Assembly: GCA_963667175.2 (NCBI GenBank)
Contig: CAXXXF010000003.1
Coordinates: 160,001 to 224,000 of the forward strand
DNA: 64,000 bases
Reading direction: 5' to 3'
Source: Candidatus Latescibacterota bacterium
Lineage (GTDB): Bacteria > Latescibacterota > UBA2968 > GCA-2709665
Shown piece by piece: positions 34,063 to 64,000 of this stretch (the first letter of the stretch is position 1; the number at the start of each line of letters is the position of its first letter). The translations under genes and the position numbers were made by a program. The notes under the pieces are model-generated. The model had not been told where the DNA came from. It saw only the letters and a list, made by a program, of their open reading frames with translations, and made no database searches.

Positions 34063-37000
34063 ATGCAACTGGAAGACCTCAAACCCGGCACAACCGTCCG
34101 CGGCATCGTTCCCGACGGCGTTGTAACCGTCGTCAACGTGCAATGGCACGGCTCCGGAGCGCTTACGCTGATCTATCGCCCGGCCTCCGGGCGGGTCGCC
34201 GAAGAGATTCTCTACCGGCACGACGAGGCGCGCCTCGAGATCGTCGAGCATGGCCGCCCGTGGAGTTTCGACGGCGACGGCGCGCTCTTTCGCCTTGTGT
34301 CCGAAGCCTACCGCATCCGCCTGGCCCACTTATTCGATCCCGTCCTCGCCGTACATACTTCCCTCGTCGAACCTCTCCCGCACCAGATCACGGCCGTGTA
34401 CGAGGCCATGTTACCGCACCATCCGCTGCGGTTCCTGCTGGCCGACGATCCCGGCGCCGGAAAAACGATCATGGCCGGGCTCTTGATGAAGGAACTCGTT
34501 GCCCGCGGCGATCTCCGACGATGCCTCGTGGTGTGTCCCGGTAGCCTTGCCGAGCAGTGGCAGGACGAACTCTACCGCCGTTTCCATCTCCCGTTCGAGA
34601 TTCTGACGAACGACAAGCTTGACGCCGCCCGGACTGGAAATTGGTTCCTCGAAAACGACCTCGCCATCGCCCGGCTGGACAAACTCGCCCGCAATGACGA
34701 CCTGCAGGCCAAGCTGGGCGCCCCGGACTGTCGCTACGACATGGTGGTCTGCGACGAAGCGCACAAGATGTCGGCGACCTTCTTCGGCGGCGAAGTGAGA
34801 TACACCAGGCGCTACCGGCTCGGTCAACTTCTGTCCAATCTCACCCGCCATTTTCTGCTGATGACGGCCACGCCGCACAACGGGAAGGAGGCGGACTTTC
34901 AACTCTTCCTCGCCCTGTTGGACGGCGATCGCTTCGAGGGACGGTTCCGTGACGGCGTTCACCAGGTGGACGTTTCCGATCTGATGCGCCGAATGGTGAA
35001 GGAGAATCTGTTGAAGTTCGACGGACGGCCGTTGTTCCCGGAGCGCATCGCGTATTCGGTGCCGTACAGGCTAACTGACGCCGAAGCGCGGCTGTACAGA
35101 GAGGTGACCGAATACGTCCGCGAAGAGTTCAATCGCGCGGAGGCGTTGCAAAACGATACACGCGCGGGTACCGTCGGCTTTGCGCTCACCATCCTGCAGC
35201 GGCGCCTGGCGTCTTCGCCCGAAGCGATTCACCAATCGCTGAGGCGGCGCCGTGAACGGCTCGAAGGCCGGCTTCGAGAACTGAGCCTGCTGCAACGCGG
35301 CGCCAGGCAACAGGAAGCAATCTCCCAGGCCGGTCCGTTGTTGGACGCCGAGGACGTGGAGGACCTGGACGACGCCCCGTACGAAGAGGTCGAGGCTGCC
35401 GAGGCGGCAGTGCTGGACGAGGCGACGGCGGCAGGTACCATCGCGGAACTGGAAGCCGAGATCGCTTCGCTCAAGCGGCTCGAAAAGATCGCGGGTGAAA
35501 TCCTTCGCAGCGGAGAGGATACGAAGTGGCGTGAACTCTCGAATCTGCTCGGAGAGATCTTCACGAAGGCCGGACTGGGAGCGTCGGGTGGCGAGAAAGT
35601 CGAACCCTACGGCAGCGGCGCCATCCCGCCTCCTGTTCCGTCGCCGAGCCAGAAACTCGTACTCTTCACCGAGCACCGGGATTCGCTGAACTACCTCCAG
35701 CGGCGCATTGCCACGCTGCTTGGCCGTCCGTCCGGCGTTGTCACCATCCACGGGAGCATGGGGCGGGAGGATCGCCGCAAGGCCCAGGAGGCCTTCCTGC
35801 ACGATCCGCTGGTTCGGGTTCTGTTGGCTACCGACGCCGCCGGTGAGGGCATCAACCTCCAGCGCGCCCACCTGATGGTGAACTACGACCTTCCGTGGAA
35901 CCCGAACCGCATCGAACAGCGATTCGGACGGATCCACCGCATCGGGCAGACGGAGGTCTGTCATCTCTGGAACCTGGTGGCGGAAGAAACCCGGGAAGGC
36001 GACGTGTACCGCAAACTGCTGGACAAGCTCGAGCAGGCCCGGAGCGCCCTTGGCGGACAGGTCTTCGACGTGCTCGGCAGGCTTCAGTTCGACGGCCGTC
36101 CCCTTCGCGACCTGCTGATCGAAGCGATCCGCTACGGCGAACAACCCGAAGTGCGCGCCCGGCTCTCGGAGGCTGTAGATGAAGCCGTAGACCGGCCGCA
36201 TCTTCAGGAACTGATCGATGAACACGCCCTCGCGCACGATGCGATGGACTCGACCCGGGTTGCGCGCGTGCGGGAGGAGATGGAACGCGCCGAGGCCCGG
36301 CGACTGCAACCGCACTACATCGAGGCGTTTTTCCTCGAAGCGTTCAGGCGACTGGGAGGCACGGCGCGACGGCGTGAGACGGGCCGGTATCAGATCAACC
36401 ACGTCCCGGCGCCGGTGCGCAACCGCGACAGGCAGATCGGCGTGGGCGAACCGGTTCTCGCGCGCTACGAACGCATCGCTTTCGACAAGAAGTACCTCAC
36501 GCCACAGGGGGAGACGCCCGCGGCCTTCGTGTGCCCCGGACACCCGTTACTCGACGCAATCCTCGACCTGACGCTGGAGCGCCACAGGGACCTGCTTCAT
36601 CGAGGCGCCGTACTCGTGGATGAGCGGGACCCGGGCCTGGAAACGCGCGTGATCTTCTCTCTGGAACATGCCATCAAGGATGGGAGTGTCCTGCCGAGCG
36701 GTGAAGGTCGCGTCATTTCCCGCCGGACGCTATACGTCGAGATCGATTCATCGGGCGCAAAGTATCGTCTGGACCACGCGCCTTACCTGGACTACCGGCC
36801 ACTGGGAGATCACGAACCCAATGAAGCGGACGTCCTCGCTCGTCCCGAATGCGAATGGATCACGCGCGAACTGGAGCAGCAGGCGCGCGAGGAAGCCATC
36901 GCCAACATCGTGCCGGAACACCTCGGTGAAGTACGCGACCGTCGAATTGATCTGGTTGCGAAGACCCGCGCCGCGGTAAAGGAGCGCCTGACCAGGGAAA

Positions 37001-37635
37001 TGGCGTACTGGGACCACCGGGCCGAGGAGCTCAAGCTGCAGGAGGAAGCGGGAAAGGCCGGAGCAAAGCTAAACTCGCGTGAGGCCCAGCGGCGGGCCGA
37101 CGACCTTCAGGAGCGTCTTGAGCAGCGGATGTCCCAACTGGACCGGGAAGAGAAAATTTCAGCGCTCCCTCCCGCCGTGATCGGCGGCCTTGTCGTGGTG
37201 CCGATGGGACTTCTGGCAGAGATGAGCGGCGCCTCGCCCCCGCGGCGACCCGTGGACACCCAGAAGTCGGCGGCGAAAGCGCGCGCCATCATCATGGAAG
37301 TCGAGCGCGGCCTTGGATTCGAGCCGGTCGACCGGGAGACCGAACACCTCGGATATGACATCGAGAGCCGCGTTCCGGGAACGGGGAAACTCCGGTTCAT
37401 CGAAGTGAAGGGCCGCCAATCCGGTGAAGATACGATCACGGTGACGACAAACGAGATCGTCACCGCGTTGAACAAACCGGACGACTTCGTCCTCGCCATT
37501 GTCGAGTTTCTGGATAGCGGTGAACATCGCACGCACTACCTGCGCCGGCCCTTCCAGCGGGAACCGGACTTTTCGGTGACCAGCGTGAACTACAAGCTGA
37601 AAGACTTAATTGAACGGGCCGGAAAGCCGGTCTAA
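34063..37635 (+). CDS. SNF2-family helicase with C-terminal DUF3883 (NOV_C) nuclease-like domain
   Basis: LLADDPGAGKT, DEAH, TATPH, EGINLQ, QRFGRIHRIGQ. C-terminal GYDIES...FIEVKG...NE. Confidence 0.93.
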   Translation: MQLEDLKPGTTVRGIVPDGVVTVVNVQWHGSGALTLIYRPASGRVAEEILYRHDEARLEIVEHGRPWSFDGDGALFRLVSEAYRIRLAHLFDPVLAVHTSLVEPLPHQITAVYEAMLPHHPLRFLLADDPGAGKTIMAGLLMKELVARGDLRRCLVVCPGSLAEQWQDELYRRFHLPFEILTNDKLDAARTGNWFLENDLAIARLDKLARNDDLQAKLGAPDCRYDMVVCDEAHKMSATFFGGEVRYTRRYRLGQLLSNLTRHFLLMTATPHNGKEADFQLFLALLDGDRFEGRFRDGVHQVDVSDLMRRMVKENLLKFDGRPLFPERIAYSVPYRLTDAEARLYREVTEYVREEFNRAEALQNDTRAGTVGFALTILQRRLASSPEAIHQSLRRRRERLEGRLRELSLLQRGARQQEAISQAGPLLDAEDVEDLDDAPYEEVEAAEAAVLDEATAAGTIAELEAEIASLKRLEKIAGEILRSGEDTKWRELSNLLGEIFTKAGLGASGGEKVEPYGSGAIPPPVPSPSQKLVLFTEHRDSLNYLQRRIATLLGRPSGVVTIHGSMGREDRRKAQEAFLHDPLVRVLLATDAAGEGINLQRAHLMVNYDLPWNPNRIEQRFGRIHRIGQTEVCHLWNLVAEETREGDVYRKLLDKLEQARSALGGQVFDVLGRLQFDGRPLRDLLIEAIRYGEQPEVRARLSEAVDEAVDRPHLQELIDEHALAHDAMDSTRVARVREEMERAEARRLQPHYIEAFFLEAFRRLGGTARRRETGRYQINHVPAPVRNRDRQIGVGEPVLARYERIAFDKKYLTPQGETPAAFVCPGHPLLDAILDLTLERHRDLLHRGAVLVDERDPGLETRVIFSLEHAIKDGSVLPSGEGRVISRRTLYVEIDSSGAKYRLDHAPYLDYRPLGDHEPNEADVLARPECEWITRELEQQAREEAIANIVPEHLGEVRDRRIDLVAKTRAAVKERLTREMAYWDHRAEELKLQEEAGKAGAKLNSREAQRRADDLQERLEQRMSQLDREEKISALPPAVIGGLVVVPMGLLAEMSGASPPRRPVDTQKSAAKARAIIMEVERGLGFEPVDRETEHLGYDIESRVPGTGKLRFIEVKGRQSGEDTITVTTNEIVTALNKPDDFVLAIVEFLDSGEHRTHYLRRPFQREPDFSVTSVNYKLKDLIERAGKPV

Positions 37636-37657
37636 AGTACAACTGAGGGAGGGAATT

Positions 37658-39364
37658 ATGGCGAAAGCGAATATCCTCAACACTCGTACGATCAATTACA
37701 TGGAGCTTATTGGCAACGGCAAGTTATACAGAGTGCCCCCGTATCAACGCGACTACTCCTGGTCGCAAGAACAATGGGAGGACTTATGGAACGACATTCT
37801 AGAACTGAAGTCGTCCCCCGATGAGCGCCATTATATGGGTGCACTCGTAGTTGAAGGGAAGAGTGATCGCGAATTCCTGATCATCGATGGACAGCAGCGC
37901 CTTCCTACATTGAGTCTGTTTGCGCTCGCAGTTATCGACAGATTACAGGCGATGGCCGACCAGGGGATCGAGCCTGAGGACAACGGGGAACGGGCTCGGG
38001 AACTACGGAATCGATTTATAGGAGAGAAGGATCCGGCTTCGCTTACCGAAAGCACGCGATTGTACTTAAACGAGACCGACGATCCATTCTATCAAGACTA
38101 TCTGGTTCAACTAAGAAAACCGATAAACCCAAGGGGTTTGCCCAGGTCGAATCAACTCCTTTGGCAGTGTTTCCTTTATTTTAAGCGAAGTCTCGAATCG
38201 GCTCAGGATCTACAGGTGGATGGCAGAATCACAGCTAGCCTCCTCTCAGAGACCATCGCACGCCAATTCCTTTTTATTCTGATCACAGTAGACGACGAGT
38301 TAAACGCTTACACGGTTTTTGAGACTCTTAACGCGCGGGGTTTGGAATTAACCACTACGGACCTCCTGAAGAACTACCTGTTCTCGCGAGTGTCAGTGTC
38401 TGCAGATCTGACGGCATTACAGCGTCGCTGGCAAAGGCTAGTCGCCACCGTCGAACAGCCGCGTTTTCCTGAGTTTCTTCGATATCATCTTCTCTGCGAG
38501 CACCCGAGAGTTCGAAGCGAACGGTTATTTAAGCTGGTTCGAGAGCGAACCAAAACGTCTCAGGATGTATTCGATCTCCTTGACAACCTGGAAGGCCGTG
38601 CGGAACTATTCGCGGCTGTCCTGGATCCGAACCACAGCTACTGGATTGAATTACACAAAGCAAAGCCGTACATCCATGAGCTAAACCTCTTTCGAGTACG
38701 TCAAGCAATGCCTCTGCTGTTCGCAGCTTGGGAAAATATGAATGGCGAATTTGTCCGCATTCTGAAACTCGTCAGCAATATTTCGTTCCGTTACACTGTT
38801 GTGAGCCGCCGGAACACGAATGAACTAGAACCTGTCTACCACAACGCTGCCAAGGCGGTAATCGAGGGTAAGGCGACGGGACCTGCCGAAGTTTTCAATC
38901 ATCTAAAGGCCATCTACGTGGATGACATAAGGATGGACCAGGATTTCGCATTTCTTACCGTAAACACTCGAGGGCCCAGGAAGAAATTGGCGAAATATAT
39001 CCTGGCACGACTGGAAGAGGACGCAGCTAAGCGCCCCTGCGATTCGAATACGGACCCCGGAACGATCGAGCATATCCTTCCGGAGAATCCATTGGAATCC
39101 TGGGATGAGACATTTGCTTCGGATCAGTGGGATGCCGCAATCTACCGACTCGGGAATCTAACGCTTCTCGAGCCGTCAGCCAATCGGGATTTAGGTAATT
39201 CCGCCTATGAGCAAAAACGTACGGCGTATACAATAAGCAAGTATGAAATCACCAGGACCATTCCCGAGTTGGCGCCGGAGCAATGGACACCTGAACTGTT
39301 GGACGAAAGGCAACGCAGGTTCTCCAGACGAGCCGTACATTTGTGGAGATCGGATTTCGCGTGA
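37658..39364 (+). CDS. GmrSD-type type IV restriction protein (DUF262 + DUF1524/HNH)
   Basis: VPPYQRDYSW, IIDGQQR, FETLNARG, TIEHILP, LGNLTLL...N. Confidence 0.9.
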   Translation: MAKANILNTRTINYMELIGNGKLYRVPPYQRDYSWSQEQWEDLWNDILELKSSPDERHYMGALVVEGKSDREFLIIDGQQRLPTLSLFALAVIDRLQAMADQGIEPEDNGERARELRNRFIGEKDPASLTESTRLYLNETDDPFYQDYLVQLRKPINPRGLPRSNQLLWQCFLYFKRSLESAQDLQVDGRITASLLSETIARQFLFILITVDDELNAYTVFETLNARGLELTTTDLLKNYLFSRVSVSADLTALQRRWQRLVATVEQPRFPEFLRYHLLCEHPRVRSERLFKLVRERTKTSQDVFDLLDNLEGRAELFAAVLDPNHSYWIELHKAKPYIHELNLFRVRQAMPLLFAAWENMNGEFVRILKLVSNISFRYTVVSRRNTNELEPVYHNAAKAVIEGKATGPAEVFNHLKAIYVDDIRMDQDFAFLTVNTRGPRKKLAKYILARLEEDAAKRPCDSNTDPGTIEHILPENPLESWDETFASDQWDAAIYRLGNLTLLEPSANRDLGNSAYEQKRTAYTISKYEITRTIPELAPEQWTPELLDERQRRFSRRAVHLWRSDFA

Positions 39365-39520
39365 AAGAGCATTCAGGTCGGCGTTAAATCCAGCTAAATC
39401 AATGTCAGGGGAGCTTGTGTGACGGAACAGGAAATGAAATACCAAATAAAGGTCAACATTACGCAAGTAAATGGGCACTTTGACGGCAATTGCGACAATT
39501 GTTGATGAATTCCAAGAAAT

Positions 39521-39539
39521 CGTTACCTTTTGCGTAATG
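39521..39539 (+). promoter_or_regulatory. Operator-like palindrome (copy 1) before a higB remnant
   Basis: CGTTACCTTTTGCGTAATG, running into ATGATGATCGCCTTCAAA as in the intact higB. Confidence 0.65.
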
Positions 39540-40198
39540 ATGATCGCCTTCAAAAATAGGAGAATTCGTTAAGATTCCTATCGCGGCTTCGCTTTGTTCA
39601 GCCCTGCCTGCGCCGTGTCCGGCACGGCAGGCAGGCGCTCCCTCCCCGAATCCAGGGATGCGCGTCGGTCGCGCGCCTTGTCTTCGGCCACAATGACTCG
39701 GCCTCGCCTGCAGAGCGACTTTTTCAACGGACTGCTAAAGGAGAGCAAGTAATGGAGACGAACGAGTACCGCCCGGACTACGCAGTCCCCCCTGGTTGGG
39801 ATCCTCGCGGAGCGCCTCGAAGCGTAGGGATTTTCGCACGCGGAGTTCGCGAGACGATGCGACCGACCGGCGAAACTCATCAGCGAGATCATCTCCGGGA
39901 AAGCTCCGATTGAGCCGAAGACGGCCCTTCGGTTCGAAAGGGTGCTGGGGGTCAATGCGGACATCTGGTTGGGTATTGAGAAAGACTATCAGTTACATCA
40001 GAACCGGGAAGCCGATCCGAGGGTAGTTTAGCGTATACCGGCGCCGAAGGCGCATTCAGGAGTCCGGACGTGTTTCGTTCTGCCGACGAGCAGGGCATCG
40101 CTCCTGGAATCGTCGTCGGAAGGCTCCAGCACGAGAGGTATATCGAGTGGAATCGGCTGAACAACCTGAAAGTCCGATTGGAGTGGGTTGACAATTGA
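39537..40198 (+). pseudogene. Decayed higB-higA(ImmA) copy
   Basis: Only the higB start survives. higA (39752..40198) matches both ends of 41662..42747 but has a frameshift, a TAG and a large internal deletion. Confidence 0.85.
39636..39734 (-). mobile_element. Partial copy of the 3658..3817 MITE
   Basis: Near-identical reverse complement of the left ~100 bp, ending at CTAA (39735..39738). Confidence 0.85.
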
Positions 40199-40303
40199 TG
40201 CCCAAATGCGCAAAAAGAAACGCCCCTTTCGGGGCGTCGGGCCGGAGATGCTATCTCCGGCGGGGTGACGTTCAGATGATAGCTTTTTCCATGGAAATTG
40301 TCA

Positions 40304-40375
40304 ATGGCAAAAGATGCAATCGGAAGGCAACATAAAACCACGTCGAACCGAGTTCTTGTATACATTGATGGCTTC
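40304..40375 (+). pseudogene. 5' remnant of a NYN-domain gene
   Basis: Reads MAKDAIGRQHKTTSNRVLVYIDGF, the typical first strand of NYN/PIN. Preceded by hairpins at 40212..40268. Confidence 0.5.
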
Positions 40376-40396
40376 GTACTGCGCCGGCCGGTCAAG

Positions 40397-40521
40397 TGGA
40401 TGGCGGTGAACATCGCACGCTCTACCTGCGCCGGCCCTTCCAGCGGGAACCGGACTTCGCGGTGACCAGCGTGAACTACAAGCTGAAAGATTTAATGGAG
40501 CGGGCCGGAAAGCCCACTTGA
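40397..40521 (+). repeat. Duplicate of the last 125 bp of the SNF2 helicase gene
   Basis: Aligns with 37511..37635, including a stop codon at the equivalent position. Confidence 0.93.
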
Positions 40522-40560
40522 CGGGGGGAACCCGATTTGGGCAGATCGCCAAATTGGCTC

Positions 40561-40599
40561 TTGACACCGGTCTCGAAAATCGTTACCTTTTGCGTAACG
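40561..40599 (+). promoter_or_regulatory. Sigma70-like promoter with overlapping operator palindrome (copy 2)
   Basis: TTGACA-N17-TACCTT, with CGTTAC-N7-GTAACG at 40581..40599. Confidence 0.7.
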
Positions 40600-40648
40600 A
40601 AAACGAATCTCTCCACGAATTTCTCGTCAAAACCGAGAGGTGAGACAA

Positions 40649-40906
40649 ATGCCAAGAAAACCAAGAGACACCGTCACATACGACCTCAAGCTAGGCCGCG
40701 AAATCGTTTATCGTGGAACCACCAGCGATCCCGATGCGCGAGAGCAGAGCCACAGAGCAGAGGGCAAGAATTTCGATCAGCTGAAGGTAACATCAAGACG
40801 AATGACGAGAGCGGGGGCGGAGAAAAAGGAGGCCGAGAATCTGGAGACGTACCGAAAGGGACACGGTGGAAGAAATCCAAAATACAACAAGAGGGACGAC
40901 GGATAG
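40649..40906 (+). CDS. Minimal stand-alone GIY-YIG-like protein (85 aa)
   Basis: TYDL....IVYRGTT.D...REQSH ... E ... PKYN follows the GIY-YIG Y/Y-G/R/H/E/N order. GAGAGG RBS. Confidence 0.65.
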   Translation: MPRKPRDTVTYDLKLGREIVYRGTTSDPDAREQSHRAEGKNFDQLKVTSRRMTRAGAEKKEAENLETYRKGHGGRNPKYNKRDDG

Positions 40907-40997
40907 ATCTACTACAACTCTCCGAGCGCGGCTTCGCGTCGTTCAACCGCAATCAAATGGGTGGCAGTGAACGCGTGAGCCCGTTCGATGTACCAAT

Positions 40998-41084
40998 CAC
41001 TCCCCCCTTGAGGGGGAGTCGCAGAAGCCGAGCCTGATCCCTGTGCTTTTCGAAGGGTCAGGCGACGGCTGATGCGGTGGGGGG
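40998..41084. repeat. REP-like palindromic element
   Basis: ACTCCCCCCTTGAGGGGGAGT hairpin and a distal GGTGGGGGG. Confidence 0.55.
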
Positions 41085-41275
41085 AATTCAGCGCCTTGCC
41101 GTACGCCGGTGGCGTGCATGAACTTGCTGCCGTTTTTCGCGTTGATGCCCCGCTTGAAGACTCAAAGGACTGACGGACTACACATCCACACGATTCCGCG
41201 GTCCCGGCATCCAAACGCACCCTGCGCGATTTCGTGATCGAATACCGGTCGCCGAACAGGTATAGTAATCTCTCC

Positions 41276-41317
41276 TTGACATACGCTCACCCAAATCGTT
41301 ACCTTCCGCGTAACGAT
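41276..41317 (+). promoter_or_regulatory. higBA promoter/operator (copy 3)
   Basis: TTGACA-N18-TACCTT. ATCGTTAC-N7-GTAACGAT overlaps the -10 box and the start codon. Confidence 0.7.
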
Positions 41318-41651: not shown

Positions 41652-41661
41652 AGGAGAACGA

Positions 41662-53928: not shown

Positions 53929-54005
53929 CTTTAAGGCGTGCCGTATTTGTACGTAGATCGAATACTAAACGCAGGTCTCACGGATTGGCCGCCGAGACCG
54001 TCTAA

Positions 54006-56053: not shown

Positions 56054-56078
56054 ACCTGACGTAGCGATAAGGAAGACA

Positions 56079-56780
56079 TTGGTGCCTGAGTTCAAGCGCA
56101 TTGTTTGTTTGGCGAACTCCCGGAAAATGGCGGGACGGTGCATTGCCGGTCGGGAATGGAACGAGGAACAGAAAGTTGGTAAATGGGTCCGGCCTGTGAG
56201 CGCCCGCGACAACCAAGAAGTTTCCGAGTACGAACGTCAATACGAAGACGGAAGCGATCCTCGGGTACTCGATATCATCGACATTCCGGTTCTGAATCCA
56301 CAGCCAAAGAACTTTCAAACCGAGAATTGGTTGCTCGATCCAGACTATTATTGGGAGAAAGCAGGTAAGTTAACGCCGTACGATTTGTCCGAATTCGTGG
56401 ATATATCCACCCCTTTGTGGATTGATGGACAAAGCACGTACCACGGTCGAAATGACAAAATCCCGCTTGAATCAGCCAAATCTGTTTCGGATTCGCTAAG
56501 ACTCGTCCATGTCGAACAGTTGAACCTTTCTGTGTTTAAACCAGGTGAAGCGTTCGGAAACTCCAAGCGGCGTGTACAAGGGCATTTTCGTCACGCCGAT
56601 ACGGGATATAAACTTTGGGTCACCGATCCCGTATACGAGCAGGAATACCTGGCGAAGCTAGATGGCACCTATGAAATAGGAGAATGTTACGTCACGATCA
56701 GCCTTGGGGAACCGTACGACGAAGCGTGTTACAAACTGATCGCTGCAATCATTCCGGCAGAACTGGGGGTGAAATTATAA
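56079..56780 (+). CDS. Dual OB-fold domain protein
   Basis: CLANSRK..GRCIAG, WVRPV, QTENWL, Y.L.VTDP, TISLGEP...CYKLIAAI. Confidence 0.75.
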   Translation: MVPEFKRIVCLANSRKMAGRCIAGREWNEEQKVGKWVRPVSARDNQEVSEYERQYEDGSDPRVLDIIDIPVLNPQPKNFQTENWLLDPDYYWEKAGKLTPYDLSEFVDISTPLWIDGQSTYHGRNDKIPLESAKSVSDSLRLVHVEQLNLSVFKPGEAFGNSKRRVQGHFRHADTGYKLWVTDPVYEQEYLAKLDGTYEIGECYVTISLGEPYDEACYKLIAAIIPAELGVKL

Positions 56781-57412
56781 TGAAGACCAACAATACGGTT
56801 TATACAATTGGCCATTCCAATCACGCAGTTGACTCCTTGATCGCGTGTCTGCGCATGCATCATGTCACGGCAGTAGCCGATGTCCGCTCAGCGCCGTACA
56901 GCCGCTTCAATCCCCAATTCAATCGTGAGCCCTTAGATGGTTGTCTCAAAAAGCACGGGATAGAGTATTGGTTCTTTGGTCACGAATTGGGAGGTCGCTT
57001 CAGTGACCCTACATGTTACATTGACGGGCGTGTGAGTTACGACCATGTTGCTGCGACGGATTTGTTCAGGCGCGGCTTGGATGAGGTCGCGCAAAGCGTG
57101 GCCAATCACCGAATCGTGCTTCTATGCGCAGAGCGTGAGCCGCTCGAATGTCATCGGACGCTCCTTGTGGGCCGGGCAATTGACGAGCGAGGTATCGAAG
57201 TCGCACATATCCACGCCGATGGTCGGCTGGAGTCCCATGCCGAGGCGATGGACCGATTGCTCAACCGCTTCAATCTGCACCCCGACGGCGATCTGTTTCG
57301 TGCAGCGCAATCTCGAGAAAAACTGGTCGCGGAGGCCGTAGCACGGCAGGCAAAACGCATTGCCTTTGCGGACCGGAAATCGACAAAACGTTCAAGGGAG
57401 TCTACAATATGA
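56780..57412 (+). CDS. DUF488 family protein (a)
   Basis: YTIGHS, DVRSAPYSR, ELGG, LLCAE..P..CHR. TAATG coupling. Confidence 0.88.
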   Translation: MKTNNTVYTIGHSNHAVDSLIACLRMHHVTAVADVRSAPYSRFNPQFNREPLDGCLKKHGIEYWFFGHELGGRFSDPTCYIDGRVSYDHVAATDLFRRGLDEVAQSVANHRIVLLCAEREPLECHRTLLVGRAIDERGIEVAHIHADGRLESHAEAMDRLLNRFNLHPDGDLFRAAQSREKLVAEAVARQAKRIAFADRKSTKRSRESTI

Positions 57413-57846
57413 ATATCTCAACCATCGGCTTTACGAGAAAGCCCGCGAGCCGTTTCTTCGACTTGCTGATGCAGTCAGACGCCAGGCGTGTCGTCGACGT
57501 CCGGTTAAACAACGCGTCGCAATTGGCCGGTTTTGCGAAGAAGGATGATCTGGCGTATTTCCTGCGGGAACTCTGTGGGATGGACTACGTCCACGTCCCC
57601 CAATTGGCGCCCACGAAGGAATTGCTGGACGACTACAGGAATCGGCGGTGTGACTGGCAGGCCTACGAGGACCGTTTCAACGGGCTGATGTGCGAGCGGC
57701 GGATCGAGGAGACGGTTCCGATTGAGATCGTCGCGGACGGGTGTCTGCTGTGCAGCGAGGATAAACCGCACCGCTGCCATCGGCGGCTCGTCGCCGAATA
57801 CCTGAAATACCATTGGGTCGACGTCGAAATCGTCCATCTCCGATAG
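57409..57846 (+). CDS. DUF488 family protein (b)
   Basis: TIGF, DVRL, LAPT, CLLCSE..P..CHR. ATGA overlap. Confidence 0.88.
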   Translation: MNISTIGFTRKPASRFFDLLMQSDARRVVDVRLNNASQLAGFAKKDDLAYFLRELCGMDYVHVPQLAPTKELLDDYRNRRCDWQAYEDRFNGLMCERRIEETVPIEIVADGCLLCSEDKPHRCHRRLVAEYLKYHWVDVEIVHLR

Positions 57847-57856
57847 GTAGCATCGC

Positions 57857-58192
57857 GTGAACATACCTGCCTCGGAAACGTTCATCTCGACGATGGTAGA
57901 CCGAATTGTAGAAGGCTTCCAACCTTCTCGACTCGTTCTCTTCGGTTCCCATGCGCGGGGCACGGCAACCGACACAAGTGACGTGGACTTGCTCGTCATT
58001 CTGCCCAACGTGTCCGACAGGCGGCACACGGCTGTCGAATTTCGCCGAGCCCTGGGCGACCTGCCGGTATGTAAGGACATCGTAATAGCGACTCCCGAGG
58101 AAGTCACTCGTCACGGTCATCTTGTTGGTACCGTGCTGCGTTCAGCACTCCGCGAAGGAAAGGTTCTCTATGAACGACCGATTCCAACGTGA
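57857..58192 (+). CDS. Minimal nucleotidyltransferase (MNT), copy 1
   Basis: LFGSHARG...SDVDLLV, EGKVLYE. Confidence 0.88.
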   Translation: MNIPASETFISTMVDRIVEGFQPSRLVLFGSHARGTATDTSDVDLLVILPNVSDRRHTAVEFRRALGDLPVCKDIVIATPEEVTRHGHLVGTVLRSALREGKVLYERPIPT

Positions 58193-58226
58193 GGTTTGAC
58201 GCACATCGCTCCTACAACGTCCTTCC

Positions 58227-58278
58227 TGGGAGCGCGGGCGCCTGCCTGTGCGTTGCACGCAGGCAGGTCCCGCCCGCA
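58227..58278. repeat. REP-like palindrome interrupted by a CCTGCCTG hairpin (58241..58267)
   Basis: GGGAGCGCGGGCG | CCTGCCTGTGCGTTGCACGCAGGCAGG | TCCCGCCCGCA. Confidence 0.7.
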
Positions 58279-58424
58279 TGTGCTGTATCTATTCGGCCAC
58301 GTAAGCGCACAATTGAACGTCGTACTACCAATGCCCACTTTTGGTGATTCAACGTATAAACGAAATCTGCGGCAATCGATGTCGCTATCCAAACAGAGTC
58401 ACACTTAGAACAGGTACTGACGCC

Positions 58425-59561
58425 ATGGACCAGGAACGCCCTGAAGACCGACTTCATCTTCCGGATCTGTCGATAACCGGATTTCGGGGAATCGCGTCAC
58501 TTTCCATTAAGCGCTTAGGCCGCGTGACGCTGCTCGCGGGAAGGAATAGTGTCGGCAAAACAACCGTCCTTGATGCCGTCCGGGTCTACGCGGCGCGGGG
58601 TCGCCCTTCCGTTCTGTCCGACGTGTTGAAGAGCCACGAAGAAGTGGCTGCCGTTACCTACCACAGTGACAGCGAGAAAATTGGCCCTCATCTGGAAGCG
58701 CTCTTCCACGGACGGGACGCTTCTGAGGAAACATTCTTCTCGATCGGCCCTGATAACGGACGGGATCAAGTTAGCGTTGAAGCGATTCCTCCGGATAAAG
58801 CCACTCGCCCTCATCATCCGTGTCCTGCCCCTTTTTTTGTGGCGCCAGTAAGAATGCTTAAAATTGTCTGTCGAGACAAAGAGGAGATCGTCCCCTGGTT
58901 TTTCTCTCCCTATGCGTTGAGTACCAAGATGGCCAAGAGTCGCCGTGTATATCAATATATCGTGGCAACAACCACAGATTACGACCTTCCAGCCACGATA
59001 GACTGTCGGTCGATGGGTCCGGCCCTTTTGAGCAAGGACCAAGTCGTGGCATTTTGGGATGACGTCGCGCTGACCGACGATGAGGAATGGGTCGTCAATT
59101 CCCTGCAGCCTGTTCTCGGGGACCAGGTTCAGCGCATTGGGACGATCGGAGATAACAGTAACGGTCGACGGGTGATCGTCAGAATTCGGGAGCAAGCCTT
59201 TCCGGTCCCTCTGGATAGTTTTGGCGACGGGGCCCTGCGCCTGTTCGGCACAGCCTTGGCGTTGATCAATAGCCGGGACGGCTTCCTGCTCATCGATGAA
59301 GTGGAAAACGGGATTCACCATACCGTGCAGCGCGATTATTGGCGAATGGTACTTGAGACCGCGCACATAAACAACGTGCAGGTTCTGGCAACAACGCACA
59401 GCTACGACTGTGTCCGCGGTTTTGCGCAGGCGGCAACGGAATGCGAGGGAATCGACGGGGCGCTTGTGCGCATTGAACGTAGAGATAAGGAAATGTGGGC
59501 AGTTGAGTATTCGGAAAAGGATCTCAGGATCGCTGCTGAACAGCGTATCGAAGTGAGGTAG
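58425..59561 (+). CDS. ABC-type ATPase (AAA_15/AAA_21)
   Basis: GFRGI, GRNSVGKT, FGDG, LLIDEVENGIH, TTHS. Confidence 0.9.
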   Translation: MDQERPEDRLHLPDLSITGFRGIASLSIKRLGRVTLLAGRNSVGKTTVLDAVRVYAARGRPSVLSDVLKSHEEVAAVTYHSDSEKIGPHLEALFHGRDASEETFFSIGPDNGRDQVSVEAIPPDKATRPHHPCPAPFFVAPVRMLKIVCRDKEEIVPWFFSPYALSTKMAKSRRVYQYIVATTTDYDLPATIDCRSMGPALLSKDQVVAFWDDVALTDDEEWVVNSLQPVLGDQVQRIGTIGDNSNGRRVIVRIREQAFPVPLDSFGDGALRLFGTALALINSRDGFLLIDEVENGIHHTVQRDYWRMVLETAHINNVQVLATTHSYDCVRGFAQAATECEGIDGALVRIERRDKEMWAVEYSEKDLRIAAEQRIEVR

Positions 59562-59562
59562 G

Positions 59563-60180
59563 TTGATGGAAAATGGTGACCGTGTCCTCCTCGTTGAAGG
59601 GCAAGACGACAAGCATGTTGTTCGACATCTGTGCCGGCAAAGCGAGTCAATGCCGCCATTTCACATTGAAGTAAAGGGTAACGACAGAAAGCTTCTTGAT
59701 TCCCTTAAACAGGAAATCAGAGTTTCCGGTCGCAGTGCCGTCGGCATCCTCATTGACGCAAACGACGATATGAATGGTCGCTGGAGTGCGGTGGAATATC
59801 GGCTTCGAGGCGAGGGTATTGAATTACCTCGTGTCCCTGTACGAACCGGTACCTTGATTGAGGGAATCATCCGCACGCCCCGCATTGGTATCTGGTTGAT
59901 GCCAGACAATCAGTCGGCCGGCGAACTCGAAGACTTTGTCTCGACGATGGTTCCTGAAAGCGATTCGGTATGGCCGCGTTCTGAGCGTTACATAAGGGAC
60001 ATTCCGAAAAAGGATAGAAAATTCAGCGACCATAAGGTACAGAGAGCCATGATCCACGCCTGGTTAGCGACTAGAAAGGAACCCAGGAAGATTGGCACAG
60101 CCATTTATGCGGGAGATTTGCGCGTTGATGGAAGACTCAGCATGGAATTTGCAGATTGGCTTCGCGAGCTTTTTAAATGA
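59563..60180 (+). CDS. DUF3226-like TOPRIM-type protein
   Basis: LLVEGQDD, GILIDAND, WLMPDN...GELE. Confidence 0.8.
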   Translation: MMENGDRVLLVEGQDDKHVVRHLCRQSESMPPFHIEVKGNDRKLLDSLKQEIRVSGRSAVGILIDANDDMNGRWSAVEYRLRGEGIELPRVPVRTGTLIEGIIRTPRIGIWLMPDNQSAGELEDFVSTMVPESDSVWPRSERYIRDIPKKDRKFSDHKVQRAMIHAWLATRKEPRKIGTAIYAGDLRVDGRLSMEFADWLRELFK

Positions 60181-61001
60181 ACGGATGGATCATGCATCCT
60201 GCTGAACAAATCGCAAAGGACACCTGGGGACGATTGAAACTGGCACGCGAACTCCGGACCCGGCTGGGAGAGGTAACCCTTACTGATCTGCTCGTTTTGG
60301 ATTTCGTGCGTTTCATGAATGGTCGCGCCAGGTTATTTCAAAGTACCAACAAGCAGGAATCGATACGAGGGACCGATCTCGAGATTCGGATTCACGCTGG
60401 ATGCAATCGAGCCGTTGCGTTTGCACTGCAAGCCAAGAAGCTGTATCCAGATGAAAGGTATCGTGAATTAAAGACCACGGTGAAGTCATCGAACTCCCTT
60501 CAATTGGAAATTCTTGAGGATTATGCTGAATCAGTACGCGCTGTCCCACTCTATCTACTGTACAACTACGTGTGCTGGGATGATTTACAACCATATTGGC
60601 ATTGTCGTGAGCGCCTCACGGAAGACATTGAACAACTGGGTTGTACCGTGGTACCAAGTCGGATTATTCGGCATGCGATTTGTAAACGCGGGCGCAGTAA
60701 CTTCGAATGGATCCACAGACTTAACCATGCATTGCCGTGGCGTTGTCTTTTCAACTGCCCTCACCAATGCACGCAGCGCTATGACGGCGAGTATTTGGAA
60801 CCCGTTGACGGTGGGTGGCCGGACTGGCTTTGGTCTCGAAAGAACACGACGTTTTATGACGAAGACGTGGACAGATTGCGTGAGGAGATTTCAAACCGAG
60901 AGAAATCGAGGCGGAAATTGGAACAGTCCGATATTCCACACGGATTTGGACATACCGACGAGATTGGCGAACTGCCGGGTTACCTCATCTTGGTCAAGTA
61001 G
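60177..61001 (+). CDS. Putative PD-(D/E)xK nuclease (DUF6615-like), copy 2
   Basis: Near-identical to 54006..54827 except for the last ~40 codons. Confidence 0.75.
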   Translation: MNGWIMHPAEQIAKDTWGRLKLARELRTRLGEVTLTDLLVLDFVRFMNGRARLFQSTNKQESIRGTDLEIRIHAGCNRAVAFALQAKKLYPDERYRELKTTVKSSNSLQLEILEDYAESVRAVPLYLLYNYVCWDDLQPYWHCRERLTEDIEQLGCTVVPSRIIRHAICKRGRSNFEWIHRLNHALPWRCLFNCPHQCTQRYDGEYLEPVDGGWPDWLWSRKNTTFYDEDVDRLREEISNREKSRRKLEQSDIPHGFGHTDEIGELPGYLILVK

Positions 61002-61076
61002 AAGACCGGATAAACAGATCGAATGTAGCACGACGCTAATCCCGCGGTGCCTCGGCAACCGTTCCCAACGAACTCC

Positions 61077-61192
61077 TCGCGGACGGGTGTCTGCTGTGCA
61101 GCGAGGATAAGCCGCACCACTGCCATAGGCGGCTCGTGGCGGAGTATCTGAAACAGCATTGGGGCGACGTCGAAATTGTCCACCTCGGATAG
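61077..61192 (+). pseudogene. 3' remnant of DUF488(b)
   Basis: Matches 57731..57846. Confidence 0.85.
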
Positions 61193-61202
61193 GAAACATC
61201 GC

Positions 61203-61541
61203 GTGAACATACCTGCCTCGGAAACGTTTATATCGACCATGGTAGACCGAATTGTAGAAGGCTTCCAACCTTCTCGGCTTCTCCTGTTCGGTTCCCATGC
61301 GCGGGGCACGGCAACCGAGTGGAGTGACGTCGACTTGCTCGTCATTCTGCCCAACGTGTCCGACAAGCGGGATACGGCTATCGAGATCCGCCGCGCCCTG
61401 GGAGATCTCCCAGTTTGCAAGGACATAGTAATAGCCACTCCCGAGGAAGTCATTCGTCGCGGTCATCTTGTTGGTACCGTGTTGCGTTCAGCACTCCGCG
61501 AAGGGAAGGTTCTCTATGAACGACCCTGCGCGCCATCGTGA
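61203..61541 (+). CDS. Minimal nucleotidyltransferase (MNT), copy 2
   Basis: Near-identical to 57857..58192. Confidence 0.88.
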   Translation: MNIPASETFISTMVDRIVEGFQPSRLLLFGSHARGTATEWSDVDLLVILPNVSDKRDTAIEIRRALGDLPVCKDIVIATPEEVIRRGHLVGTVLRSALREGKVLYERPCAPS

Positions 61542-61968
61542 CGCGCGTCGCTTGTTTCATTTCGAGACGGGAGATCTCGTTTTCGGACAACGCTTCTTGT
61601 CGGCCGACGGCGCTTGACTTCGGCACACCCGATCCGTCGTCTAGCAAATTGACAGATCGCCAATATCCGTCAGCGGTACTACGACGCGAACTTCAAGACC
61701 CAGGACATCCCGCATTTGATGGCGAGCTCGGTATCTATTTCGAATGAACTGTGTCAGAGAAGCGATTGCATTGTGACAAGCGGTGACACAAATTTCGGCG
61801 CAATGCCCGATACAAGGAAATTCAACGAGCTTGCTTCGCGCGACGCGTTGCTTTTCTGAACGATAAATTGCACGCAACTACCGTGAAGTTCTGTCAGGCG
61901 TGACCTCAGACGTCGACTTCACCAGGAGTCCTTGCCGCCTTGTCTTTGACAGATAGGGGAATTGAACC

Positions 61969-63144
61969 ATGCAAATTGAGCAGATTGAGATCAAAAACTA
62001 CCGTCCCTTCCGCCACGCGGTCCTCGGAGCTCTGCCGCGCATGGTCGTAGTTGTCGGCGCCAACGGCTCGGGCAAATCAACGCTCTATGATGTTTTCAGC
62101 TTTCTAAAGGATGCGCTGACTCAAAATGTCGCCACGGCGGTCGCCAGGCGAGGCGGATTCCAGGAGCTTGTCAGTCGTGGAGAAAACGGCCCGATCGGTA
62201 TTACGATTAAATTTCGAGAGAAAGGCGGGCGGCTGGCCACATATGTCCTTCAAGTGGCCGAAGATAGTGGACGTGTCGTCGTCCACCGCGAGATTCTACG
62301 CTACCGGCGGGGGCAGTATGGAAAGCCCTGGCATTTCGTTGATTTTTCGCGCGGTACGGGAACTGCGATCACAAATGAGTCCGTGTACGGCCAAAAAGGC
62401 GTCGTCGAAGAGCGGGAAGAGTATGAGCTCGACGATCCAAGCATCCTGGCGATAAAAGGTTTGGGCCAATTCCGTGAATTCCGTGTTGTATCGGAGTATC
62501 GTAGCCTGGTTGAGAACTGGCACGTGTCGAATTTCCACATTGCCGACGCCCGGCCGAGTGTCGACGCTGGCTACGCCGAACATCTGTCCAGCCGAGGCGA
62601 CAATGTCGCCCAGGTCGCCCACTATCTTTACGAGAATCACCGCGACTCGTTCGACCGAATTCTAAGGGCGATGAGTCACCGCGTTCCGGGTGTTAGTAGA
62701 GTAGAAGCCAAACCCACGGAGGACGGACGTCTGGTTTTACGCTTTCAGGATGGAAGCTTCAAGGATCCATTCATCGCCCGGTACGTCTCCGACGGCACCA
62801 TAAAGATGTTTGCATATCTCGTATTGCTCTATGACCCCAGACCTCATCCCTTGTTGGCAGTCGAAGAACCTGAAAACCAACTGTACCCCGAGCTGTTGGT
62901 TGAGCTAGCTGAGGAGTTTCGCGACTACGCCCAGCGAGGAGGTCAAGTGTTTATTTCAACACACTCACCTGATTTCCTGAATGGTGTGGAACTCGAAGAG
63001 ATCTTCTATTTGGTCAAGAAAAACGGCTTCACGACTGTGCGCCGAGCATCCGAGAGCGAGTTGCTACGCAACCTCGTCGACGAAGGGGATTTACCAGGTT
63101 CTCTCTGGAAGCAAAGGCTGTTTGAGGGAGTAGGACTACAATGA
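61969..63144 (+). CDS. ABC-type ATPase (AAA_21)
   Basis: GANGSGKS, SDGT, VEEPENQLYP, STHS. Confidence 0.92.
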   Translation: MQIEQIEIKNYRPFRHAVLGALPRMVVVVGANGSGKSTLYDVFSFLKDALTQNVATAVARRGGFQELVSRGENGPIGITIKFREKGGRLATYVLQVAEDSGRVVVHREILRYRRGQYGKPWHFVDFSRGTGTAITNESVYGQKGVVEEREEYELDDPSILAIKGLGQFREFRVVSEYRSLVENWHVSNFHIADARPSVDAGYAEHLSSRGDNVAQVAHYLYENHRDSFDRILRAMSHRVPGVSRVEAKPTEDGRLVLRFQDGSFKDPFIARYVSDGTIKMFAYLVLLYDPRPHPLLAVEEPENQLYPELLVELAEEFRDYAQRGGQVFISTHSPDFLNGVELEEIFYLVKKNGFTTVRRASESELLRNLVDEGDLPGSLWKQRLFEGVGLQ

Positions 63145-63731
63145 GGCACATTGTTTTCCTTCTGGAGGAGTTCTCAATGGGCGGCTTTCTGGATGTCTTG
63201 TTGCCGAGAATTTTTCCGGATCTGTCCTTTCAGTGCGTGCCCCACGAGGGTAAACAAGACCTTGAGAAGAGTATCCCTCGAAAATTAAGGGCGTGGCGCG
63301 AGCCGGGTGTACATTTCTGCGTGATTCGGGATAACGATAGTGGCGATTGCCGCGCACTGAAGGAAAGGCTTATCGCTCAATGCAAGTCGGGCGGCCGGGA
63401 TGACACCTTGATCCGCATCGCTTGCCAGGAGTTGGAGGCCTGGTATCTGGGCGAGCCGGATGCTTTGGCGGAGGCGTTCGCTAACGAAAAGCTGCGGGGC
63501 ATCGGAAATAAAGCGCGATATCGCAATCCGGACGCCGTCGTCAGACCATCTGCCGAAGTCCGAAAGCTCGTACCTGAATTCCAAAAGGTTTCGGGCGCTC
63601 GCCGCATGGCTTGCCATTTGACCTGCGACAGGAATAGGTCGGCTAGTTTCCGCACTTTTCTAATGGGAATTGAGGACCTATGGCGAAATCCCCTGATCGG
63701 GGATGTGCGTAGTCCATCAACCGTAGGATGA
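63141..63731 (+). CDS. DUF4276-like TOPRIM-type protein
   Basis: VFLLEE.S, HEGKQDL, IRDNDSGDC, ELEAWYLG, NRS.SF. ATGA overlap. Confidence 0.82.
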   Translation: MRHIVFLLEEFSMGGFLDVLLPRIFPDLSFQCVPHEGKQDLEKSIPRKLRAWREPGVHFCVIRDNDSGDCRALKERLIAQCKSGGRDDTLIRIACQELEAWYLGEPDALAEAFANEKLRGIGNKARYRNPDAVVRPSAEVRKLVPEFQKVSGARRMACHLTCDRNRSASFRTFLMGIEDLWRNPLIGDVRSPSTVG

Positions 63732-63743
63732 GGATAAAGGACC

Positions 63744-64000
63744 ATGGCAGTAACCAACCGTGAACGCGTCGAAAAGGCGCTCGATCTATTGAAGGCGGGA
63801 TTGGGTCCATTCGTCGATCGAGAAGTCAAGAGTGCATTTAAAGCAAAGCGATTGGACGAATACGGCTTCCACCACTATCAGGATGACCCGAAACTCAAAG
63901 GCAAGCCCGTTACCGGATGGGACGCGGCCGCTTTGTTGAAGTTGATGTGGACCACGTGGAACGACGTGTTCAGGTATACGCTCGGGCATATCGAACGTAG
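63744..64000 (+). CDS. N-terminus of a Swt1-like HEPN / DUF499 AAA+ ATPase (runs off the window; missing from the ORF track)
   Basis: MAVTNRERVEKALDLLKAGLGPFVDRE...WDAAALLKLMWTTWNDVFR, the start typical of the ATPase that accompanies DUF1156 and SNF2/DUF3883 genes. AAGGA RBS. Confidence 0.8.
   Translation, partial: MAVTNRERVEKALDLLKAGLGPFVDREVKSAFKAKRLDEYGFHHYQDDPKLKGKPVTGWDAAALLKLMWTTWNDVFRYTLGHIER

Follow-up and report, generated by a model that had tools for sequence, protein, structure and literature searches.

Hma systems, whose three-gene anti-phage core (hmaA, hmaB and hmaC) is a restriction-modification-like module related to bacteriophage exclusion (BREX), have already been described as conserved platforms for embedded defence genes. 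The terms 'embedding' and 'guilt-by-embedding' are those of Payne, Hughes, Fineran and Jackson (Payne et al. 2024, bioRxiv 10.1101/2024.01.29.577857), who reported embedded genes in 931 of 1,485 Hma systems, 96.7% of these genes being co-oriented with their host system. The HEC ('Hma-embedded candidate') and PDC names used below are taken from the same work, in which seven of nine HEC candidates protected E. coli (the exceptions being HEC-01 and HEC-09) and 145 PDC candidates were still untested. A second study found insertions in 66.5% of hma systems and used the label 'defence gene insertion hotspot' (PMC11232893). Here we describe positions 34063–64000 of a 64,000-nt stretch, hereafter the window, from a Candidatus Latescibacterota bacterium (GenBank assembly GCA_963667175.2, contig CAXXXF010000003.1, positions 160,001 to 224,000, forward strand). 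We read this region as an Hma system, that is, a Type-1 DUF499-centred BREX-related system, with cargo imported from other Hma loci by recombination, and assign this reading a probability of roughly 80%.

Some aspects of how such a core works are already on record. The trio has been classified as a Type-1 DUF499-centred BREX-related system with a proposed restriction-modification-like mechanism (PMC12839542), and HmaA of Halomonas meridiana protects on its own against T4 via the nickase activity of its NOV_C domain (PMC11232893). In the sister system MANTIS (formerly Gao_RL; Type-2 BREX-related), a DUF499 ATPase loads the methyltransferase, asymmetric 6-bp sites become hemimethylated and a helicase-nuclease restricts unmodified DNA (10.64898/2026.09.23.753747). 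The initial annotation of our stretch, which was made from the letters alone, had recognized a restriction-modification or BREX-like defence module, and this agrees with the matches to HmaA and HmaB described below and with the published Hma system; its remark that no mechanism was established is out of date in view of the HmaA nickase and of MANTIS.

The three anchor genes lie in the order hmaA–hmaB–hmaC, all on the + strand, as is typical of the 79 related loci with which we compared them:

34063–37635, + strand: hmaA, 1190 aa, a Snf2-family helicase with a C-terminal NOV_C/DUF3883 PD-(D/E)XK nuclease domain
48282–51194, + strand: hmaB, 970 aa, a predicted DUF1156 N6-adenine DNA methyltransferase
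63744–64000, + strand: 5′ end of hmaC, encoding HEPN_Swt1; the remainder of the gene is beyond the window

The product of 34063–37635 matched the PADLOC HmaA model over residues 1–1188 with 1643.8 bits, and Pfam placed SNF2-rel_dom, ResIII, Helicase_C and NOV_C (= DUF3883) within it, the last at residues 1073–1152 with 64.5 bits. It carries helicase motifs GAGKT and DEAH and a nuclease motif D...EVK, the naming of these motifs being our own, and is also recognized by the PADLOC BrxHI/BrxHII models (298–310 bits). The product of 48282–51194 matched the PADLOC HmaB model with 1543.5 bits and contains DUF1156 (108.6 bits) and MethyltransfD12 in Pfam; its FAGGG and DPPY motifs are invariant across two alignments (A1 and A2). 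Bit scores of this order lie far above what chance would produce. For the third gene, the open-ended reading frame 63744–63998 encodes 85 residues that match HEPN_Swt1 in Pfam with 53.1 bits, while PADLOC gave no match on the fragment. Among the 120 best longer relatives of this piece, 103 are proteins of ~950–1118 aa that combine HEPN_Swt1 with DUF499 (94–62% identity), and the gene at 63744 is therefore almost certainly hmaC. Short fragments make up the remaining 17, together with one HEPN-SNF2 protein; the 874-aa relative P0031 joins HEPN_Swt1 to a SNF2 helicase. The earlier proposal of three anchors in order on one strand was thus confirmed by PADLOC and Pfam for the genes at 34063 and 48282, while of the Swt1/DUF499 start proposed at 63744 the Swt1 half was recovered and the DUF499 half would fall outside the window.

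The core agrees with the published Hma systems (Payne et al. 2021, 2024; PMC11232893) in gene order and strand and, as far as the window extends, in its proteins, likewise with co-oriented cargo between the core genes; it was from embedded genes of this sort that the HEC-06, HEC-01 and PDC families recognized below were derived. The cargo here, however, amounts to 8 + 13 open reading frames (ORFs) in 10.6 and 12.5 kb, with duplications of core ends and cassettes at the borders. MANTIS combines an AAA+ ATPase of the DUF499 family with a related N6-adenine methyltransferase and a helicase-nuclease, and its ATPase-loaded hemimethylation of asymmetric sites followed by motor-nuclease restriction is the best available model for the core. 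However, the MANTIS helicase bears a PLD (HKD) nuclease and the system includes MtsB (DUF3870) as a fourth protein, whereas the window has a NOV_C/PD-(D/E)XK nuclease, a HEPN start on hmaC and no slot ORF of a DUF3870-type family in Pfam. The MANTIS-type NCBIfam models scored far below their cut-offs (phospholipD_antiphage, 154 against 1100 and over the helicase part only; DUF1156_antiphage, 101 against 1000). Type 3 BREX (BrxC, PglXI, BrxHII, PglZ and others) has a homologous ATPase, methyltransferase and Snf2 helicase (PMC12839542), and BREX also carries embedded systems such as BrxU; in contrast, the core here has three genes, and no PglZ, BrxA or BrxB was found by Pfam and PADLOC among the 26 window ORFs scanned.

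The anchors delimit two slots. Slot 1 (37636–48281, between hmaA and hmaB) spans 10,646 nt with eight + strand ORFs plus remnants, and slot 2 (51195–63743, between hmaB and hmaC) spans 12,549 nt with 13 + strand ORFs plus remnants, in line with the initial annotation, which had counted about 20 co-oriented genes and remnants in gaps of ~10.6 and ~12.5 kb. No convincing − strand gene is present in either slot; two − strand ORFs (39578–40413) match no family and overlap a gene remnant. The GC content is 0.634 in hmaA and 0.628 in the flanking chromosome, but lower in hmaB (0.568) and in the two slots (0.516 and 0.530). Within these slots, self-alignment revealed four features that bear on how the cargo may have arrived:

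39517–40200, + strand: degenerate, internally deleted copy of an operator + HigB-like + HigA-M78 module (self-blastn)
40397–40514, + strand: hmaA 3′ end remnant, consisting of the last 118 nt with its own TGA stop; direct repeat of 37511–37628
60177–61541, + strand: second, internally deleted copy of the unit 54003–58179 (self-blastn)
61058–61175, + strand: PDC-M45C 3′ end remnant, within the second unit copy

The last 118 nt of hmaA and their remnant are 94% identical, and the two copies flank the embedded restriction gene HEC-06 together with the decayed HigBA-M78 copy. The latter aligns with the intact module in three pieces (39517–39554 with 41293–41333, 88%; 39735–40002 with 41648–41914, 82%; 40077–40200 with 42627–42749, 89%). 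In alignment A3 the remnant has retained its TGA stop together with the sequence context found downstream of the intact hmaA in L070, the closest relative; the present hmaA ends in TAA, runs into the ribosome-binding site of HEC-06 and diverges from the remnant context at the stop codon. In slot 2, 54003–54708 recurs at 60174–60879 (92.6%, 706 nt) and 57712–58179 at 61058–61525 (88.2%, 468 nt), with ~3 kb deleted between the matching parts of the second copy (60174–61525), and the two copies flank the PDC-M38AB genes. Both kinds of repeat, the hmaA 3′ copy and the duplicated pieces of cassettes, are located precisely at cassette borders.

Similar scars occur elsewhere in the family. Direct-repeat remnants of slot-facing core-gene ends were found in 6 of the 79 related loci: hmaB 5′ remnants in L014, L034, L039 and L045, an hmaA 3′ remnant in L040, and an hmaC 5′ remnant of 57 nt (98% identity) in L041. 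In L039, L040, L041 and L045 the remnant stands exactly between two cassettes. As these remnants are core-gene ends, the donors would themselves have been Hma loci, and incoming copies are plausible because HmaB relatives (DUF1156 methyltransferases) are present on 183 plasmid records. On one of them, Thermus oshimai plasmid NC_019387.1, the HmaB homologue (66% identity) is broken into two parts, and the matched region overlaps an annotated IS4 transposase. Core genes also appear to exchange parts: hmaB is a mosaic relative to that of L070, with 95–99% identity at 49079–49528 and 45–63% at the adjoining 49529–50086, and since the divergent block is probably the target-recognition part, the mosaic suggests an exchange of specificity by recombination. 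The best relative of the HmaC N-terminus is 94% identical, and that of HmaB 78%. Pfam detected no integrase or transposase family among the 21 slot ORFs. Taken together, the scars suggest recombination between Hma loci without an integrase, and we found no literature on recombination scars in Hma loci.

We postulate that segments made of a core end and its cargo would be imported from other Hma loci, with one end anchored homologously in a core gene or an already shared cassette and the other joined illegitimately; the outcome would be the same for a single crossover with a circular intermediate. Each import would leave a short direct repeat of the anchor at the cassette border, repeated imports without loss would produce unusually large slots, and redundant copies would later decay by deletion. 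The initial annotation had pictured conserved anchors between which cargo is swapped by recombination in an integrase-free hotspot. Variable cargo and recombination scars support the first part of this picture, although what is seen is the accumulation of cassettes and not clean swapping. The integrase-free part holds for the 21 slot ORFs of the window, but transposase genes occur in the slots of L070 and a REP-associated tyrosine transposase (RAYT) gene lies upstream of hmaA.

To place the window in its family, one genome per species was scanned with the HmaB alignment; at least 573 stretches matched, and the best 80 yielded the 79 related loci (designated by L-numbers), which come from many bacterial phyla and one archaeon. 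Core genes were located by tblastn with HmaA, HmaB and full-length HmaC, flanks were fetched to 10 kb, and a slot of more than 150 nt was scored as occupied. The slots measured as follows:

Slot 1, 59 loci: median 1,207 nt, maximum 8,596 nt, occupied in 45 of 59
Slot 2, 57 loci: median 216 nt, maximum 9,011 nt, occupied in 29 of 57
Slot 2 minus five loci (core genes inside the gap or alignment artefact), 52 loci: median 82 nt, maximum 4,921 nt, occupied in 25 of 52

L059, whose slot 2 gap contains hmaA, accounts for the maximum of 9,011 nt. At least one slot is occupied in 37 of the 45 loci with both slots measurable, and both are empty in the other eight. Both slots of the window exceed every measured counterpart (59 for slot 1, 57 for slot 2), none of which reaches 10 kb, and slot 2 of L070 is certainly larger than 10 kb; the window, together with L070, is at the extreme of the measurable range. 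In 18 cases the + strand showed no partner core gene within these 10 kb (no hmaA upstream of hmaB in 11 loci, no hmaC downstream of it in seven). The gene order is not universal: B–A–C order was seen in L013 and L059, and eight further loci have tandem or inverted hmaB duplications or split genes (two tandem hmaB genes in L024 and L031, head-to-head hma gene pairs in L038, L042 and L044, and split or inverted hmaB/hmaC fragments in L016, L023 and L035).

Slot contents differ widely among the 79 loci, and the invariance that would have spoken against the initial annotation was not seen. PADLOC was run on 184 of the 188 slot ORFs of the relatives in three batches (thresholds 1e-10, 1e-8 and 1e-20), with matches for 63 of 150 ORFs in one batch (four of them hma genes or fragments) and 11 of 25 in another. 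At least 25 different PADLOC families were represented, including Septu, HEC-01, -03, -04, -05-like, -06 and -09 and several PDC-S and PDC-M families, as well as AbiL, Ppl, Tiamat, RmrA, SoFic-like and Mokosh-like genes. The cargo set of the window recurred in none of the loci scanned. When the window itself was run through PADLOC, HmaA and HmaB were matched and most of the cargo fitted HEC or PDC models. Slot 1 carries, besides the remnants listed above:

37658–39364, + strand: HEC-06, a GmrSD-type (DUF262/DUF1524) type IV restriction enzyme (PADLOC 695.5 bits; Pfam GmrSD_N and GmrSD_C)
40640–40906, + strand: possible 88-aa ORF with a weak GIY-YIG likeness in Pfam (E 0.021, 15.6 bits, under the cut-off)
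41296–42747, + strand: toxin-antitoxin-like pair with putative operator (palindrome, 111-aa HigB-like ORF, HigA-HTH + M78 peptidase)
41316–41651, + strand: HigB-like 111-aa ORF of this pair (ESM Atlas lead 0.97, a lead only)
41662–42747, + strand: HigA-HTH + M78 peptidase of this pair (TIGR02607 HigA 48.7 bits, cut-off 47.7; Peptidase_M78 and HTH_3; PD-Lambda-2_B 130 bits)
42918–45113 and 45120–45725, + strand: Helicase + DUF2290 two-gene system (PADLOC Helicase 1027.3 bits, DUF2290 262.3 bits)
46247–47803, + strand: ABC-type ATPase (AAA_15/AAA_21 in Pfam; partial match to PADLOC PD-T4-4_A, 121 bits)
47803–48270, + strand: 155-aa partner of the ABC ATPase, directly upstream of hmaB, of no known family

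Slot 2 carries, besides its duplicated unit as a whole:

51325–53928, + strand: PDC-S06, an AAA_13/SMC-like ATPase of 867 aa (PADLOC 796.5 bits; Pfam AAA_13 and AAA_21)
54006–54827, + strand: DUF6615 protein (Pfam), its stop overlapping the start of the Schlafen-like gene
54824–56053, + strand: Schlafen/AlbA_2-HATPase_c_4 protein (Pfam SLFN_AlbA_2 and HATPase_c_4)
56079–57846, + strand: PDC-M45 A/B/C, DuOB followed by two DUF488 proteins (PADLOC 319.1, 261.4 and 234.7 bits; Pfam DuOB and DUF488)
57857–58192, + strand: MntA-like nucleotidyltransferase, copy 1 (NTP_transf_2; MntA_antitoxin 34.5 bits, under the cut-off; PDC-S09 40 bits)
58221–58279, + strand: solo REP-like hairpin between the nucleotidyltransferase and PDC-M38A, occurring once in the window
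58341–60180, + strand: PDC-M38 A/B, an AbiL-like ATPase + DUF3226 (PADLOC 244.5 and 131.3 bits; Pfam AAA_21 and DUF3226)
60177–61001, + strand: DUF6615, copy 2 (protein 82% identical to copy 1)
61176–61541, + strand: nucleotidyltransferase, copy 2 (protein 91% identical to copy 1)
61969–63144 and 63141–63731, + strand: HEC-01 pair, ABC ATPase + DUF4276 (PADLOC 588.3 and 203.7 bits), ending 12 nt before hmaC

Several of these cassettes keep their position between loci. HEC-06, whose start at 37658 was set by its ribosome-binding site and by DNA matches to L015 and L021, is the sole cargo of slot 1 in those two loci and stands directly after hmaA in three of three. The HEC-01 subtype of the window is found directly before hmaC in all six loci that have it (the window, L003, L034, L038, L039 and L053), with stop and start abutting or overlapping, and PDC-M45 stands alone directly before hmaC in L004 and L057. 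Septu was in slot 1 in five of five loci. PDC-M38 and HEC-03 occur in either slot; the former, at 81% nucleotide identity between the window and L070, is in slot 1 in L073. Schlafen-like genes are likewise embedded in L013, L028 and L070. In L070, hmaA runs directly into the HigB-like/HigA-M78 module with no GmrSD gene. L070 and the window have in common the AAA_15 + 155-aa pair (at the same position, directly before hmaB), the Schlafen-like gene, PDC-M45C, the nucleotidyltransferase and PDC-M38AB. HEC-06, Helicase + DUF2290, PDC-S06 and PDC-M45A/B are in the window but not in L070, whereas DUF4325, IS1595, a DDE_3 transposase, a pentapeptide protein and Ppl are in L070 but not in the window.

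Two of the slot 1 cassettes correspond to systems with published activity: HEC-06 protected E. coli (Payne et al. 2024), and a Helicase + DUF2290 pair inhibited T7 (Rousset et al. 2022, PMC9122126). The ~770 nt that separate the hmaA remnant from the HigB-like gene (40515–41283) are ~80% conserved with L070. A 166-aa ORF in this interval (40537–41037) was rejected, as its L070 counterpart has three in-frame stops and the substitutions show no peak at the third codon position; the peak fits the 88-aa frame better. A 7-N7-7 palindrome occurs at 39520–39540, 40580–40600 and 41296–41316 (three copies against none expected), the last abutting the start codon of the HigB-like ORF, and it is likely, from this placement, to be the operator of the HigA-HTH/M78 protein. 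The 111-aa ORF itself has no Pfam, NCBIfam or PADLOC match. The same holds for the 155-aa partner of the ABC ATPase, which the ESM Atlas places among unnamed clusters; its predicted fold, from a two-sequence alignment, was unusable (mean pLDDT 35.5), and a D...ELK motif gives a weak hint of a PD-(D/E)XK nuclease.

A number of observations weigh against our interpretation of the locus. First, core-end scars are present in only 7 of 80 loci including the window, and most occupied slots have none, which leaves other routes open; where scars exist, they fit homology-facilitated illegitimate recombination, single crossover of a circle and unequal crossing-over alike. Second, the slots of L070 contain IS1595 and DDE_3 transposase genes. 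Third, the 79 loci are the best-scoring ones and not a random sample, and the size comparison extends to 10 kb, so that some of the 18 cases with a missing partner gene could hide equally large slots. Fourth, the DUF499 ATPase of hmaC is deduced from relatives and not observed, and methylation, restriction and co-transcription at the locus are likewise deduced from gene content. Lastly, promoter-like sites (6 against ~10 in shuffles) and terminator-like sites (14 and 11 against 20 and 17) are fewer than in shuffled sequence, and the scan is therefore silent on operon structure. Rfam at gathering thresholds returned no match in 32000–64000.

Among the rival explanations, the least improbable is an ordinary defence island or 'genomic sink', an idea raised by Payne et al. 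2024 themselves, in which genes would be tolerated anywhere, the hma genes would be no special anchors and the arrangement would reflect random insertion and drift. The same cassettes do occur outside Hma, the low GC content of the cargo marks it as foreign, and both PDC-M38 (slot 1 in L073, slot 2 in the window) and HEC-03 are found in different slots. We nevertheless regard a sink as unlikely, given that in most of the 79 loci the insertions fall into the two gaps between core genes with the A–B–C order kept, that other cassettes (Septu, the HEC-01 subtype) are faithful to their slot and core neighbour, and that the remnants of core-gene ends point to Hma loci as donors.

A second rival is delivery of the cargo by mobile elements (RAYT and repetitive extragenic palindromic (REP) sequences, insertion sequences or an outside integrase), the integrase-free look then being due to where the window ends. 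It draws attention to the region directly upstream of hmaA:

32275–34029, + strand: boundary element of RAYT gene and REP doublets, whose membership in the Hma locus is uncertain
32505–33110, + strand: RAYT gene, 950 nt upstream of hmaA (NCBIfam NF047646, 100.8 bits, cut-off 80)

Four inverted doublets of a 20-nt REP palindrome border the gene; the eight copies of the palindrome all lie within 32275–33951 and nowhere else in the 64 kb (none expected in shuffles), and the region is also spanned by repeat families D3, D5 and D8. A RAYT-family HUH Y1 transposase with flanking inverted REPs is therefore present at 32275–34029, in the single window examined. The solo hairpin at the slot 2 cassette border, the IS1595 and DDE_3 genes in the L070 slots and the report of a phage integrase near 19.1% of hmaA genes (PMC11232893) speak for the same rival. 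It is still less probable in our view than a genomic sink, since none of the 21 slot ORFs is of a recombinase family, a tRNA scan found no gene in the 64-kb window, and the borders carry core-gene or cassette repeats of 57–706 nt instead of short target duplications. RAYT relatives, moreover, are confined to 4 of the 79 loci and always lie in hmaB, compared with cargo in 37 of 45, and RAYT cannot explain embedding in general for that reason.

The RAYT relatives are of interest in their own right. In L018 (11323–12096), L056 (11309–12026), L070 (10570–11351) and L073 (~11420–12180) they are inserted within hmaB in the same orientation and reading frame, and the hmaB ORF continues through the insert; perfect inverted repeats of 25–27 nt flank the inserts in L018 and L056, and the HUH and tyrosine motifs are preserved in all four copies aligned. 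The RAYT of the window is 76–79% identical to these nested copies, and the slot 2 hairpin (58221–58279) shares 96.6% identity with the left end of the insert in L070 hmaB. In a large protein collection, 97 of the 120 best RAYT relatives longer than 352 aa are DUF1156 proteins, while most near relatives in a library of 50%-identity representatives are free-standing (190–300 aa, best 61%); searches limited in these two ways leave it undecided whether nested or free copies lie closest. Insert sites in HmaB are mostly near residue 455, with minor ones near 175, 200 and 300, and four proteins have two inserts. RAYT was also seen nested in an N6_Mtase/Eco57I-type methyltransferase and in a class I tRNA ligase (proteins P0338, P0355). 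No hmaB remnant was detected around the window RAYT by tblastn with four nested HmaB proteins. Slot 2 is occupied in all five RAYT-associated loci (the window, L018, L056, L070 and L073) compared with 29 of 57 overall. It is conceivable, though we consider it improbable, that this lineage is a specific Hma companion that would act as a single-strand DNA nuclease on hairpins of Hma loci, and would seed the illegitimate ends of captured segments or would switch or diversify hmaB; the locus would then not be free of recombinases. Supplementary tables aside, we found no description in the literature of RAYT nested in a DUF1156 methyltransferase, and such in-frame domains in a defence methyltransferase merit a study of their own.

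A third rival, about as improbable as mobile-element delivery, takes some or all embedded genes as functional Hma accessories (sensors, back-up effectors or regulators) of one composite machine, for which one can cite the constant head-to-tail arrangement of the HEC-01 subtype with hmaC, the inactivity of HEC-01 alone in Payne et al. 2024, the co-orientation of all cargo with the core and the proposal of embedded nucleases as back-up effectors in the NAR 2026 BREX paper, but which is doubtful given that HEC-06, Helicase + DUF2290 and others protect alone, that contents are highly variable with both slots empty in 8 of 45 loci, and that duplicated, decaying copies would be unexpected for obligatory subunits. 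The best candidate for core dependence is HEC-01, because it is always adjacent to hmaC and protected alone against none of the phages tested in the published screen; the combination raises the question of whether HEC-01 works with HmaC.

Import from other Hma loci can also be set against known forms of cargo exchange. Type I restriction-modification loci with embedded PrrC and the integrase-free hotspots (PMC10250203) likewise have variable cargo between conserved genes and no dedicated recombinase, exchange in such hotspots being presumed to occur via homologous recombination in the flanks; here, in contrast, the flanks are subunits of one defence system, and two slots lie in one operon-like unit. 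Chromosomal integrons (bioRxiv 10.1101/2024.07.02.601686) likewise collect many small defence cassettes in an array that runs in one direction and lengthens by addition, but the window has no IntI integrase and no attC-like repeat at its borders, which carry core-gene and cassette pieces instead; in a repeat search, no family of short repeats recurred at the borders of the cassettes.

By homology and with MANTIS as a guide, HmaC (DUF499) would load or regulate HmaB on short asymmetric sites and sense targets, self DNA being marked, and HmaA would translocate and nick or degrade unmarked DNA; the HEPN domain of HmaC may serve as a last-resort RNase. The embedded systems would add orthogonal layers, namely type IV restriction of modified DNA, ABC-ATPase systems, toxin-antitoxin-like modules and Schlafen-like ATPases.

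Two regions of the window outside the Hma locus were also noted. At 726–2281 lies a divergent, PvuII-like type II restriction-modification pair (N6_N4_Mtase, PADLOC MTase_II 554.9 bits; Endonuc-PvuII, 226 bits) with a GC content of 0.457. The segment 25500–29600 (GC 0.49–0.56) has five ORFs of 135–386 aa (four on the − strand) that lack any Pfam match and gave one very weak PADLOC match, and could be another foreign islet.

The locus is of an ordinary kind, but it is an extreme example, unusually loaded and informative on cargo arrival. Under the published PADLOC rule used in the survey, neighbouring hma genes may be separated by no more than three others (Payne et al. 2024, Methods); with 8 and 13 ORFs in its gaps, the locus is Hma by content but would be missed by that rule, and loci like it were for this reason outside the reach of the survey. 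The three-gene limit would split the 30-kb unit into unrelated hits, and the published embedding and cargo-size figures are probably truncated. The core-end remnants at cassette borders offer a concrete and checkable entry route, which the available sections of Payne et al., PMC11232893 and PMC12839542 leave unexplained, the word 'recombination' being absent from the main text of Payne et al. 2024. Its strongly defence-enriched setting also makes several cassettes candidates for phage assays, namely the pair of ABC ATPase and 155-aa protein, the pair of DUF6615 and Schlafen-like ATPase, HigBA-M78, PDC-S06, PDC-M45 and PDC-M38.

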